Shown in pieces: positions 7,383 to 64,000 of a stretch of DNA of 64,000 nucleotides. The position numbers and the translations under genes are program-made. The stretch spans positions 1,364,001 through 1,428,000 of the forward strand of contig JAGIQG010000043.1 in NCBI GenBank assembly GCA_024679065.1, in the 5' to 3' direction. The notes under the pieces were generated by a model. It was not told where the DNA came from. It searched no databases and saw only the letters and a list, made by a program, of their open reading frames with translations. Positions within the stretch are counted from its first letter, which is position 1. The number at the start of each line of letters is the position of its first letter. Origin of the DNA: Sphyrna mokarran. Its lineage: Eukaryota.

Positions 7383-7457
7383 TCATTTCCGACCTGCCTT
7401 CTTTTTTCTTTTCTTTTCCAGAGCGACCAGATCCAGGGAGGCGTAGACAGGTCCACT
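7383..7457 (-). pseudogene. Exon 8, terminal coding exon (SGPVYASLDLVALEKKRKKKAGRK*)
   Basis: atatttcag acceptor, phase 0, YxxL motif typical of immunoreceptor tails, TGA at 7383-7385. Confidence 0.8.
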
Positions 7458-7649
7458 CTGAAATATTCACAAATCATAGAGACATTGCAGTGAATCGTAG
7501 AAGTCCGCCAGTGCTGAAGGAGAACATACAGCATATAGATATTTAAAATCACCCTCAACCTCAAACATGTGACATAAAATCATTCGACACAAATTAAGAG
7601 GTAACTAAGCTGCCCATTGTATCCGTGTTGGGTCTTTGAAAGGTCTATC

Positions 7650-7985
7650 CATTTTTATTTTATTCATTCTTGGGACATGGGCTTCGCCCAAACCGAATTT
7701 TCTTATTCGAAGGCAGCTGAGGGTCAATCACATTGTTGTGGTTCCGGAGTTACATGTAGGCCAGATCAATTAAGAATGACAGATTTATTTCCCGTAAAAA
7801 GATAATTGAAGAAGATGGGGTTTTCTGACAATAGTTTCATGGTCATTAGAAGATCATTAATTGCAGATTTTGTTTCACTGAATAAAAATTCAACCATCTG
7901 TCATGTGAGATACGAACTTAGGCCCCTGGAATATAAGCTGAGTATGTAGGTAAATAGTCTTGCACCAAGACGACTAGGTCATCAC
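7650..7985 (-). mobile_element. SINE family B
   Basis: Same core (ACATGTAGGCCAGA..CAGATTT..) and tail. Confidence 0.7.
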
Positions 7986-8097
7986 TTTAACTTTCTGCAT
8001 AATACTCAGCTCTGATCATTGTAAAGATTGGTTATTCTTTCGGCAGTGGCTATTAAATCTGCTTCCATTGGCCTCTACCTCAATTGGAAACATAGCA

Positions 8098-10875
8098 AGA
8101 CCTAATGTTGTGGCCATTTCAGAGACATGGATAAAGCAGGGACAGGAATGGTTGTTGCAGGTTCCAGGGTTCAAATGCTTCAGTCGGAGTAGAGAAGGAG
8201 GTAGAAGGGGGGGAGGAGTGGCATTATTAGTCAAAGACTGTATCACAGTGACAGAAAAGAAGTTTGATGAGGACTTGTCTTTTGAGGTAGTATGGGCTGA
8301 GATTAGAAACAGGAGAGGAGAGGTCACCCTGTTGGGAGTCTTTTATAGACCTCCTAAAAGTTCTAGAGAGGTAGAGGAAAGGATTGCAAAGTCGATCCTG
8401 GACAGCAGTGAAAGTAATAGGGTAATTGTTATGGGGGACTTTAACTTTACTAATATTGATTGGAATAGCTATATCTCTAGCTCGTTAGAGGGGTCAGTTT
8501 TCGTACAAAGTGTGCAGGAAGGTTTTTTGACTCAGGATGTAGATAGGCCAACTAGAGGTGAGGCTACATTGGATTTGGTGCTGGGCAATGAGCCAGACCA
8601 GGTGTTAGGCTTGGAAGTTAGTGAACATTTTGGGGATAGTGACCACAATTCGGTTACGTTCACCTTAGTGATGGACAGGGATAGGCATGAAGCTGGGGGC
8701 AGTAGTTATAGCTGGGGGAAGGGTAATTATGAGGCCATAAGGAGAGAATTAGAGTGCATAGGTTGGACTAGGAAACTACAGGGACTGGGAACATCTGAAA
8801 TGTGGAGCTTATTCAAGGAGCAGATACTGCGAGTCCTTGATAAGTATGTCCCTGTCAGGCAAGGAGGAAATGGTCGAGTAAGGGAACCATGGTGTACGAA
8901 AAAAGTTAATTCGCTGGTTAAAAGGAAAAAATGAGGCTTATGTCAGGATGAGGCTTGAAGGCTCAGTTAGTGCAATGGATAGCTATAGATGAGCCAGGAG
9001 GGAGCTAAAGAGTAAGTTGAAGAGAGCTAAAAGGGGACACGAGAAAACTTTGGCTGATAGGATCAAGGAGAATCCTAAAGCTTTCTTTAAATATGTTAAG
9101 AATAGAAGATTGGTTAGGGCAAGATTAGGGCCAGTCAGAGACAGCAGTGGGAAGTTGTGCGTGGAGCCTGAAGAGATTGGAGAGGCACTGAACAAATATT
9201 TCTCTTCGGTATTCACGCAGGGAGATGTAAATGTAGTTGTGGAGAACACTGGGATGCAGGGTTGCAAACTGGAAATTATGGAAGTAGATAAGGAGGATGT
9301 GCTAGATATTCTTGAGGGTTTGAAGTTAGATAAGTCCCCTGGGCCGGACGGGACTTACCCTAGGAGTCTCTGGGAGGCGAGAGAAGCGATTGCAGAGCCT
9401 CTGGCTCTGATCTTCAGGTCGTCGTTGGTTACGGGTATCATGCCGGAAGACTGGAGGATAGCGAATGTGGTCCCATTGTTCAAGAAGGGGAAGAGAGACT
9501 TTCCGGGGACTTATAGGCTGGTGAGTCTTACTTCTGTTGTGGGCAAAGTATTAGAGAGAATTATTAGGGATAGGATTTATAGTTATTTAGAGAGAAATGA
9601 ATTGATTGGGGATAGTTAGCATGGTTTTGTGATGGGTACGTCGTGCCTTACTAACGTTATCCAGTTTTTTGAAAAAGTGACCAAAGAGGTGTTTGGGGGT
9701 AAGGCAGTTCATGTGGTATATATGGACTTTAGTAAGGCGTTCGATAAGGTGGCCAATGGAAGGCTTCTGCAGAAAATGCAGATCTATGGGATTGAGGGTG
9801 ATTTAGCTAATTGGATTAGGAATTGGCTAGCAGATAGAAGACAGAAGGTGGTGGTTGATGGAAGATATTCATCGTGGAGTTCGGTTACAAGTGGTGTACC
9901 ACAGGGGTCTGTTTTGGGGCCCATGCTGTTTGTAATTTTTCTATATGATCTGGATGAGGGTATTGAAGGATGGATTAGTAAATTTGCGGATGACACCAAA
10001 GTCGGAGGAGTGGTAAATAGTGAAGAGGGGTGTTACAGTTTGCAGAGAGACTTGGACAAGTTGCAGAGCTTGGTCGAGATGTGGCAAATGGAGTTTAATG
10101 CGGAAAAGTGTGAGGTAATTCACTTTGGCAGGAATAACAAATGTGTAGAGTATAGGGCTAATGGTAGGACTCTTAATAGTGTTGATGAACAGAGGGATCT
10201 TAGTGTATATGTGAATAGATCCCTGAAAGTTGGCAATCAAGTCTATAAGGTTGTTAAGAAGGCATCCGGAGTCTTAGCTTTTATTGTAGGGGGATTGAAT
10301 TTCGAAGCCGCAACATCATGTTGCAACTGTGCAAAACTCTAATGCAGCCGCACTTGGAGTATTGTGTGCAGTTCTGGTCCCCGCATTATAAGAAAGATCT
10401 GGAGGCATTGGGGAAGGTACAGAGGAGGTTTACCAGAATGTTGCCTGGCATGGAAGGAAGGTCTTATGAAGAGAGGCTGAGGGATTTGAGGTTGTTTTCG
10501 TTAGAAAGAAGGCGGCTAAGAGGAGACCTTATAAGATGATTAGAGGTTTAGATAGGGTAGACAGTGATAGCCTTTTTTCTAGGATGGAGAAAGCTAGCAC
10601 GAGGGGACATAGCTCTAAATTAAGGGGTGGTGGTTATAAGACGGATGTCAGATGTAGGTTCTTTACCCAGAGGGTGGTAAGGGTATGGAATGCCCTGTCT
10701 GCGTCAGTTGTAGATGCGCCAAGTTTGGTGCCGTTTAACAGGTTAGTAGATAAGTTTATGGACGAAAAGGGAATGGTTTAGGTTGTAGGGTCATTGCTTT
10801 TTCCGAATTGGTTGGCGCGACATCGAAGGCCGAAGGGCCTGTTCTGCGCTGCAATGTTCTATGTTCTCTGTTCTA
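8098..10875 (+). mobile_element. CR1 LINE, near-complete ORF2 (EN+RT) with stops and frameshifts
   Basis: ORFs 8068..10781 contain [26 protein letters not shown] and FADD; ends in the tail. Lies in the last intron of the VJ-C1 gene. Confidence 0.96.
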
Positions 10876-11254
10876 AAGGACAGGAACAAAAGCTGGCCAT
10901 TCAGTCCATCGTATCTGCTCCCCCAATCGAGTTCATGACGATTCTGATATGAGAGTCATCAACTTCACGTTCCATATTTATTCCCAAAATCCTTTACTTC
11001 CTTACTGTTTAAGAATCTGTTCATCTCAGCCTTCAAAGTGTTTAACGTCCCAACGCGTATAGAGTGACAAAGAAGCAGAATTTGAAAACCAACTTAACAA
11101 AGGCATCACTAACATTTATTCAGAAAACTATTTTAATGAATCTATCAATTCGATTGGTGTTACACAGACAAAACAATTACCATGTTTCTCCGTATGTTAT
11201 GTTCAAAGTTCTTTGACCACGTCTCCGCATTTATCAACTCAATTCCCTTCAGAA

Positions 11255-62592: not shown

Positions 62593-62757
62593 AGCAGTTG
62601 TAGATGCGCCAAGTTTGGTGGCGTTTAAGAGGTTAGTTGATAAGTATATGGAAGAGAAGGGAATGGTTTAGTTTGGAGGGGCATTGCTTTTTATATTGGT
62701 CGGCGCAACATCGAAGGCCGAAGGGCCTGTTCTGTGCTGTAATGTTCTATGTTCTAT
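62593..62757 (+). mobile_element. Very short young CR1 3' tail
   Basis: Essentially identical to 544-706. Confidence 0.92.
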
Positions 62758-62964
62758 TTAACAGCCAGCTATGCCTGTTGTTGAATTGAAATTAATGCCC
62801 CATAGACATACACCCTGCTGCAGAATTAGTAAGAACTAAATCAAGTATATTCACATGATGCTGGACTTCAGCCTTCAGCACTTTTGTAAATTGAGCCTGT
62901 GAATGTTGAACAATTCTACAATGCTTCTCGGGTTGGGACATTTCAGAAAACGTCTGTGGGGAAG

Positions 62965-63085
62965 AAGAGAGAGAGATAAATAGAGATAGATAGGCAGATA
63001 GATAGATAGATAGACAGACAGATAGACAGACAGACAGGCAGATAGACAGACAGACAGATAGATAGATGGATAGATAAAAGACAGA
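62965..63085. repeat. (GATA)/(GACA)n microsatellite
   Basis: Direct reading; abuts the gap. Confidence 0.95.
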
Positions 63086-63244
63086 NNNNNNNNNNNNNNN
63101 NNNNNNNNNNNNNNNNNNNNNNNNNNNNNNNNNNNNNNNNNNNNNNNNNNNNNNNNNNNNNNNNNNNNNNNNNNNNNNNNNNNNNNNNNNNNNNNNNNNN
63201 NNNNNNNNNNNNNNNNNNNNNNNNNNNNNNNNNNNNNNNNNNNN
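63086..63244. other. Assembly gap (159 N)
   Basis: Run of N. Confidence 1.
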
Positions 63245-63813
63245 TAGACACAGAGGCAGAGACTCAGGTTGAGACAGAGAATACCGTCTCCCACCAGCGT
63301 TGGCAGGAAGTAAGAAACGAAGCTAAAACTTGGAATGTTTTTCTATAACTCTCTGTCCCTAGCTACATGACAGAAAATGTCAACCACCTCCAATCAATCT
63401 CCATCCAGCAATCCAGGAGATATTGAAACCACATAATTATGCATCAGTTCAAATTAAAATCAACAATTGTTCCACAATCCTGCTGCAGACAACACGATGC
63501 TGAGAAATTGCCAGGAACTGCAAAGACATCTTGCTGAAAAAAAATACAACTAAAATATGTTTCGTAAAGACACAGTATCATCTGAGGATGGGCAATAACG
63601 TTGGCTTAGGCAGCCATGCCAAAAATTATAAATGAAATAAATTGAGACAAATAATCATGTAATCCCTCTTAATGTCAGAGCCGAGGGACAGTGAGGTAAA
63701 TAGTGAGAATAGCATTAACGAGGGCAATACGATTGGACAGCTGTTTCATTCTGAAAAGGAATAAGAATGATTGTATCAAATAATTTATGTCTCATATACT
63801 GTTTATTCTCCAG

Positions 63814-64000
63814 CTGGCTTACCCAAACCTTCCTTGATTCTGGATCCACATTCCGGAATCTTTCTACCAGGAGAAGATTATTCACTCATCTGCCACTTCC
63901 CCCTCACGCGCTGCAATGTGGAATTGTACAAAGATTTCAAGGTCAGAGTCTTGTCCTTGAATGATGCCAACTACACGGCCATCTTCAGGTTTAGTGCGAT
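63814..64000 (+). CDS. LRC-type (LILR/KIR/IGSF1/A1BG-like) C2 Ig domain exon, runs off the window
   Basis: gtttattctccag acceptor, phase 1. Open frame AGLPKPSLILDPHSGIFLPGEDYSLICHFPLTRCNVELYKDFKVRVLSLNDANYTAIFRFSA...; LPKPSL-x-P...GE-x3-L-x-C and LYKD are typical of LRC-family domains. Confidence 0.8.

Follow-up and report, generated by a model that had tools for sequence, protein, structure and literature searches.

The window, a 64,000-nucleotide stretch of a Sphyrna mokarran contig (JAGIQG010000043.1, here C1027), contains a germline-joined VJ-C1 receptor gene on the minus strand, an immunoglobulin light-chain (IgL) constant exon (CL) on the plus strand and, also on the plus strand, the 5′ part of a gene with LRC-type Ig domains (Table 1).

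Table 1. Features located in the window (positions are those of the whole stretch)
Feature	Position	Strand	Remarks
Inverted remnant: last intron plus splice acceptor from a further type-A gene	4317..5256	+	non-coding
Type-A last exon	7383..7457	-	tyrosine motif PVYASL and stop
Type-A cytoplasmic exon	16044..16096	-	further small tail exons likely
Type-A transmembrane exon	16399..16500	-	Cys directly before the membrane; span without charged residue
Type-A C1 exon	24049..24366	-	Pfam C1-set 2.9e-8
Type-A germline-joined VJ exon	24448..24780	-	Pfam V-set; 333 nt, single exon
Type-A leader exon	25352..25406	-	55 nt, phase 1; homologous to paralogue units
Approximate left edge of single-copy block	37433..38045		homology to closest type-A unit stops
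Partial CL duplicate, 54 bp	41226..41279	+	93% to CL exon
IgL constant pseudo-exon (CL)	42712..43035	+	Pfam C1-set 1.4e-7; IgL-type
First leader exon, LRC-type gene	46478..46541	+	phase-1 donor; matches N-terminus of basking-shark orthologue
First Ig exon (D1), LRC-type gene	63814..64000	+	LRC-type Ig domain; exon starts 63814

Genes of the window

The minus-strand gene, termed type A, ends in an exon that is 57–80% identical to the tails of three shark type-A proteins. The VJ-C1-TM gene lies where the initial annotation had placed it, but it is dead. The assembly sequence carries an in-frame TAG at 24709–24707 within the VJ exon, the B-strand Cys of that exon is replaced by Tyr, and the C1 splice acceptor reads GG, compared with AG in 31 of the 32 type-A C1 exons examined; because of these lesions the gene is a pseudogene. 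A strict RSS pattern was matched nowhere in the window. For the remnant of a second VJ-C1 paralogue proposed in the same annotation, no coding trace was found between 7383 and 64000, and only an inverted non-coding piece came to light at 4317–5256, with 66% identity over 972 bp to the last intron of a paralogue.

CL had been read as a plus-strand pseudo-exon, and this is borne out by its C1-set match, by its clustering with the IgL C exons of the S. mokarran assembly (tree support 100/99) and by a frameshift near 42880; its acceptor and terminal Cys are also lost. Antibody light chains prevail among its PDB matches, and it may resemble a carcharhinid lambda-type chain. Neither tblastn nor profile searches found a V or J segment for it. 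CL is 38–42% identical to all five of the genome’s own intact IgL C exons compared, which lie on other contigs, and is sister to all five, an outcome that does not demonstrate the type II/lambda label of the initial annotation; it has no close parent elsewhere in the genome. Its N-terminal half ranks the exon of C772 first and its C-terminal half that of C1548, and a protein search with one half returned seven candidates, none at E ≤ 0.01, which is weak evidence. The cartilaginous-fish IgL miniclusters (lambda, kappa, sigma as well as sigma-2) of PMC12227049 share with CL a C1 exon ending in a stop, whereas CL has no V or J and is frameshifted.

In the LRC-type gene, the first leader exon begins 3.4 kb downstream of the CL stop; a second leader exon (mini-exon) was not located. 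Beyond the window the gene extends for about 35 kb, through one dead exon and two Ig exons with open frames to a hydrophobic tail exon that ends near C1027:1,463,300. The best solved matches of its Ig domain are PIR-B (1.9e-8) and LILRA2 (1e-7). A LILR-like gene had been proposed here, and its LRC-type Ig domains and its leader close behind CL stand; however, the terminal hydrophobic exon stops without a cytoplasmic part, as it does in three shark homologues, and the gene is therefore not a LILR. It shares LRC-type Ig domains and a phase-1 leader exon with LILR/PIR and LRC receptors, and differs from LILR/PIR in having neither an ITIM tail nor a charged transmembrane residue and in being single copy. 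The protein may be GPI-anchored.

The LRC-type gene lies on C1027, outside the genome’s LRC-type cluster on C1104. In all three domains it groups with the basking-shark protein XP_078390379 (96/91, 95/90 and 91/77), to which it is 62–66% identical, compared with 49–53% to the C1104 paralogues. This basking-shark orthologue is nearer to it than is any paralogue of its own genome.

An array of two receptor families

The window gene belongs to an array that the initial annotation had not noticed and that is our main result: a PRARP-like receptor family, greatly expanded. The array spans 2.25 Mb, from 609 kb to 2.85 Mb of C1027, and holds 33 loci of type A together with about 42 of type B, approximately 75 in all. 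The genes encode one C1 domain, followed by a transmembrane segment with a preceding Cys and a tail with a tyrosine motif. V and C1 exons are both open at 29 of 34 type-A loci and in 28 of 39 type-B locus records, with 24 distinct V sequences among the 29 open A copies and 24 among the 28 open B copies. Several copies are identical, so some may be assembly duplicates. In the tree, A and B are sister groups, separate from IgL C (100/99). The J region is of the FGxG type in B and degenerate in A. The residue at Y-2 of the tyrosine motif is Thr in type B and Pro in type A of sharks, and the shark A motif is therefore not a canonical ITIM, whereas that of the ray protein P0067 is canonical.

The two families alternate along the contig, with 53 changes in 74 neighbouring pairs compared with 37 in shuffles (p = 1.5e-4). 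Of these 53 A/B neighbours, 38 are in tandem and six head-to-head. The alternation may reflect only the duplication of a two-gene unit. One further A/B pair lies on C894, both families occur on a single 22.06 Mb record in Heterodontus, and type A was found in sharks, rays and a chimaera. When dN/dS was pooled over pairs of copies, which are not independent of one another, frameworks and C1 gave 0.41–0.52, the B loops 0.68–0.72 and the A CDR3-like loop 1.12, whereas the A CDR1-like (0.57) and CDR2-like (0.50) loops showed no excess over the framework (0.52).

Genes for 7TM proteins interleave the array, and samples of C894 likewise contained 7TM genes and no marker gene. Exon prediction in a 430 kb flank overlooked single-exon GPCRs because they had been masked as repeats; they were recovered by listing open reading frames. 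A PDB search with the B profile returned antibodies only, Atlas searches matched only unnamed V-C1 clusters, and the non-chondrichthyan matches of the type-A V profile include NITR-like V-I proteins from teleosts.

In our preferred reading, which we consider probable, the window carries a dead copy within a tandem array of A and B genes, likely encoding two-chain inhibitory receptors, and the block holding CL and the LRC-type gene is a likely old neighbour. The A and B products, each with a Cys before the membrane, would pair as disulfide-linked receptors, their germline-diversified V loops would recognise ligands, and their tyrosine motifs would recruit phosphatase; the receptors would likely act as brakes on immune cells.

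The single-copy block

CL and the LRC-type gene lie in a block of about 73 kb, from approximately 37.5 kb of the window to C1027:1,474.7 kb, which has no unique homology to the 21 array loci tested and is bordered by array genes on both sides. The initial annotation had suggested that the window may be one unit of a mixed complex in which IgL clusters, VJ-C1 receptors and LRC-like receptors duplicate together. Although the three kinds are adjacent once, C1027 carries a single CL and a single LRC-type gene among approximately 75 VJ-C1 loci, and no counterpart of the block was seen in the array units tested besides this one. The genome’s intact IgL clusters are found on C772, C838 and C1548, its LRC-type cluster on C1104, all chromosome-sized contigs, and no VJ-C1 match above background was found at any of these clusters. 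The single copies and the separate clusters refute co-duplication in this genome, and we give the idea hardly any credence; at the loci searched in this genome no second place was found where the families are neighbours, a circumstance that the annotation itself had named as speaking against it. Occurring once each in the array, CL and the LRC-type gene are likely old neighbours rather than parts of a repeated unit.

The same annotation had raised a one-off pile of pseudogenes or a mis-join as the other outcome. Dispersed pseudogenes inserted in this lineage alone, or a mis-join of the assembly, would fit the finding that two of the three window elements are pseudogenes, and the many LINE copies of the region. 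The junction near 37.5 kb is known from the assembly alone, and the second-haplotype contig C1018 starts at 38045, without spanning the passage from the A gene to CL. Against this, no assembly gap separates the genes, C1018 carries everything between CL and D1 in the same order, with about 99.8% identity, and array genes flank the block on either side. The LRC-type gene keeps open exons and has a conserved orthologue, and CL, the intergenic DNA and the leader are all covered by contigs of three related organisms, although no single one of these contigs reaches from CL to the leader. A recent pile of this kind accordingly finds no support, and we regard a chance assembly of any sort as quite unlikely. 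Given the basking-shark orthologue and the CL-to-leader DNA of the three related organisms, the block looks old; a rearrangement likely caught it inside the array.

A trace of ancestral linkage, also raised at the outset, is possible. The block would then be the remnant of an early jawed-vertebrate chromosome on which IgL, LRC-type and VJ-C1 genes were neighbours. Among the IgL C exons, CL stands on a long branch of its own and lacks a parent in the genome, one of the three related organisms (organism C) retains its acceptor AG, the difference lying at 42710, and the LRC-type gene is of an old lineage. C1027 begins with ALDH3 and UNC93B1, presumably genes of human 11q13, and the LRC cluster on C1104 lies close to tweety and Josephin-2, presumably of human 19q13, ALDH3 and tweety being identified at the level of the gene family. 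The human 11q13 and 19q13 regions are paralogous. The markers on C1027, however, are about 1.3 Mb from the block, behind a GPCR array, and multigene families are mobile, as the 7TM genes interleaved with the array also suggest. In the basking shark the LRC-type orthologue lies on a 5.39 Mb record and type-B genes on one of 7.99 Mb; these different records give no support for old linkage, and cross-species synteny yields none here. On balance we hold deep linkage to be a tentative reading, somewhat doubtful. Its boldest form, in which a germline two-chain TCR-like inhibitory repertoire of at least 24 × 24 possible A/B pairs, predating RAG rearrangement, stands beside a separate, ancient light-chain lineage plus an LRC ohnologue and so marks a once-shared light-chain/VJ-C1/LRC segment, seems to us unlikely.

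Relation to known receptors

PRARP/VJC1 receptors, of which bony vertebrates are known to have one pair in each genome, have a single VJ exon, a C1 domain, a transmembrane segment, an inhibitory-type tyrosine motif and a dimer-forming Cys. The PRARP pair was reportedly described by Fu et al. in 2019, and the non-rearranging VJC1 genes by Ohta et al. in the same year. By description, A and B resemble them in the germline VJ exon, C1, transmembrane segment, tyrosine motif and the neighbourhood of two related genes; they differ in their approximately 75 loci and diversified loops from the single pair of bony vertebrates. PRARP has been placed in the MHC (PMC10751288), whereas the markers of the A/B array are ALDH3, UNC93B1 and 7TM genes. 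According to PMC12227049, the elasmobranch UrIg and UrIg2 genes, in the MHC and antigen-receptor complex, also have a non-rearranging VJ exon with C1 domains after it, three in UrIg and nine in UrIg2; A and B have one C1 domain, a tyrosine-motif tail and many copies. NITRs form large clusters of non-rearranging VJ receptors, with a second domain of the I-set according to 10.1101/2021.06.11.448072, whereas A and B have a C1-set domain and form two alternating families. Literature searches, which do not establish absence from print, met no description of a shark VJ-C1 array.

In current models (PMC10751288, PMC12227049), a VJ-C1 gene of two domains is the starting point of antigen receptors. The A/B family, which sharks and rays share with a chimaera, has this layout and reaches approximately 75 loci in S. 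mokarran. Should the CL lineage or the LRC-type gene turn out to be linked with the array across cartilaginous fish, this would add a third chromosome segment to the debate on antibody origins; if not, the window would be an unremarkable rearrangement scar within an array of immune genes. As a model of how recognition could be combinatorial without rearrangement, the array is open to test.

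A two-family VJ-C1 array and its member in the window

The window (C1027:1,364,001–1,428,000) lies within a 2.86 Mb contig, C1027, on which genome searches delineate a tandem array of two non-rearranging VJ-C1-TM families, A and B (germline-joined variable, constant and transmembrane exons), spanning 609 kb to 2.85 Mb; the window's gene belongs to family A. The contig carries at least 33 A loci and at least 42 B positions, both lower bounds because the searches score best candidates only; copies on eight small contigs were excluded as probable alternative haplotypes, and the B count takes in fragments, two of them unretrieved and one, at 891 kb, assigned to B without support. 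Both V and C1 remain open in 29 of the 34 A loci and in 28 of the 39 B locus records, or 29 of these when one gene that spans two records is included; each family contributes 24 distinct V sequences. The families alternate along the array (53 changes in 74 neighbour pairs, against a shuffle mean of 37; p = 1.5e-4), the 53 A/B neighbours being arranged in tandem (38), tail-to-tail (9) or head-to-head (6).

A juxtamembrane Cys and a tail tyrosine motif are common to A and B. Pooled dN/dS, calculated from pairs that are not independent, is 0.41–0.52 in frameworks and C1; for the loops it is 0.68–0.72 in B (all three) and 0.57, 0.50 and 1.12 in A. The F-strand Cys is absent in one open A copy and the B-strand Cys in six; these six genes (C1027:1.01–1.31 Mb and 1.651 Mb) have open frames, retain an additional pair of Cys in the C'-C'' region, and possibly encode functional V domains without the canonical disulfide. 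Relatives of B occur in five shark genera and those of A in sharks, four batoids and a chimaera, both families being found together on a single 22.06 Mb record of Heterodontus. Protein-identical array genes lying tens of kb apart on C1027 (2,702,833/2,754,277; 2,409,494/2,481,401; 1,786,438/1,961,829) are either very recent duplications or assembly duplicates.

The layout and minus-strand position of the VJ-C1-TM gene in the initial annotation hold, but the gene is not intact. Its C1 exon begins 81 bp downstream of the VJ exon, with GG at an acceptor that is AG in 31 of the 32 type-A C1 exons examined; this defect, an in-frame TAG (24709–24707) and replacement of the B-strand Cys by Tyr in the VJ exon make it a pseudogene. 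Much of the window is occupied by LINE remains, and young LINE copies with long open reverse-transcriptase frames lie at 26791–28479 (+) and 33512–35266 (-). A degenerate type-B C1 remnant is located about 21 kb ahead of the window (locus record L223:8693–8893; C1027 ~1,342.8 kb).

Features of the window and related loci (five-digit coordinates are window positions)
Feature	Position	Strand	Remarks
Type-A gene		-	Leader, single joined VJ exon, C1, TM exon, cytoplasmic exon, last exon
Last exon of type-A gene	7457–7383	-	Tyrosine motif present
CL, IgL-type C1	42712–43035	+	Groups with this genome's intact IgL C exons
Leader exon of LRC-type gene	Begins 3.4 kb past CL stop	+	
D1, first Ig exon of LRC-type gene	From 63814	+	
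LRC-type gene beyond window			Dead exon, two open Ig exons, final exon (hydrophobic tail and stop)
LRC-type multigene cluster	C1104:126.9–131.9 Mb		Near tweety and Josephin-2; candidate LRC, presumably syntenic with human 19q13
Single-exon rhodopsin-class 7TM array	C1027:150–545 kb, 650–770 kb, 1.492, 1.506 Mb; C894:0.2–3.0 Mb		Flanks and interleaves VJ-C1 array

The single-copy block of CL and the LRC-type gene

The orphan light-chain constant pseudo-exon (CL) was correctly recognized as an IgL constant exon: it forms one group with five of this genome's intact IgL C exons (tree support 100/99), on a long branch and at 38–42% identity to them, and has lost its acceptor and acquired a frameshift near 42880. 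No V or J was found in searches around it, and no function is left in CL or the window's A gene. Among the matches listed, CL has one copy on C1027, leaving aside a 54-bp fragment and the copy in the second haplotype, and its closest intact relatives are on contigs C772 (52 Mb), C838 (43 Mb) and C1548 (114 Mb). The interval C772:7.9–9.0 Mb holds about 19 IgL clusters; their VJ exons are joined, and their C exons fall into at least two sub-lineages.

The gene that follows, annotated as split-leader and LILR-like, has a first leader exon close to CL and Ig domains of leukocyte receptor complex (LRC) type, a label that holds because PIR-B and LILRA2 are the top solved-structure matches of one domain. 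The gene has no cytoplasmic tail, an ending shared by three shark homologues, and its sequence predicts a three-domain GPI-anchored protein rather than a signalling LILR; at the cell surface it probably serves in adhesion or as a decoy. Its dead exon has a bad acceptor, a frameshift and a stop. A second leader mini-exon was not located and may be hidden by the run of Ns that precedes D1; direct splicing of the first leader exon to D1 is also in frame.

The domain tree places each of the three domains with a basking-shark protein (62–66% identity; support 96/91, 95/90 and 91/77), apart from the three paralogues compared from contig C1104 (49–53%). The gene is an old lineage rather than a recent escape from the C1104 cluster. 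It has one copy on C1027 among the matches listed, with relatives clustered at C1104:127.7–130.1 Mb. The tweety and Josephin-2 genes near that cluster are 19q13 genes in human, which makes C1104 the likely true shark LRC; a neighbouring kinase exon set, without a database match, is presumably LMTK3-like.

Homology between the window's A unit and its closest paralogue stops near window 37.4 kb, and comparison with 21 array loci gave no further unique match before the tail of the next B gene, at 1,474.7 kb. Here A and B are 96 kb apart, a gap exceeded by only one other in the array, where the median distance between loci is 25 kb. CL and the LRC-type gene thus constitute a 73 kb single-copy block. 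The initial annotation's observations mostly stand, but its mixed complex of co-duplicated IgL clusters, VJ-C1 receptors and LRC-like receptors does not hold for this genome: among the matches listed, C1027 has CL and the LRC-type gene once each, and their relatives are on other contigs.

Age and chromosomal setting of the block

The second-haplotype contig, C1018, matches window 38,045–57,270 at 98.5–99.8%, with D1 collinear, so the CL-to-LRC arrangement is not a private mis-join; C1018 stops short of the junction near 37.5 kb. The second haplotype also carries a 740-bp LINE fragment (L037:6026–6762) missing at window 54,040, an insertion polymorphism. Window 42660–46700 was compared with public contigs from three related organisms (B, C and D). 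In organisms C and D, separate pieces cover CL (in part for D), a large share of the intergenic DNA and the leader region, and organism B has CL and some intergenic pieces; no single record among these contigs joins CL to the leader. The CL acceptor AG is present in organism C, and organism B aligns ungapped at the frameshift site. In the basking shark the LRC-type orthologue (5.39 Mb record) and B genes (7.99 Mb record) are on different records, which counts against old linkage. Old linkage of CL, the LRC-type gene and the array, the initial annotation's alternative reading, is possible but unproven.

Contig C894 (26.5 Mb) carries one head-to-head A/B pair, at 2.365 and 2.386 Mb. Its B gene, with 41% (V) and 48% (C1) identity to a C1027 copy, diverges most among the B genes and possibly marks the ancestral locus. 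C1027 opens with an ALDH3 gene and UNC93B1, a pair located at 11q13 in human, and single-exon 7TM genes come next. Such genes also surround the C894 pair, suggesting that C1027 is part of the C894 chromosome or a paralogous block.

Known joined-VJ genes and a proposed mode of action

In layout, the array genes match what is reported for the PRARP pair and the VJC1 genes. PRARP is located in the MHC (PMC10751288) and counted among joined-VJ genes (PMC11599192), NITRs are defined as V-I (bioRxiv 2021.06.11.448072), and a two-domain VJ-C1 precursor is posited alongside UrIg and UrIg2, whose C1 domains are more numerous than those of the array genes (PMC12227049). No account of a shark array was found in the literature searched, part of it accessible as excerpts, and these genes may be listed in tables of PMC10751288 and PMC12227049. 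The novelty is the expanded two-family array, the underlying kind being already known.

For A/B pairing, ligand, cell type and signalling, the picture is one we infer. Most likely V, C1 and the Cys next to the membrane would join the A and B chains into a Fab- or TCR-like module fixed in the germline; ligand would be bound by loops that duplication diversified, and activation would be damped through the tail tyrosines.
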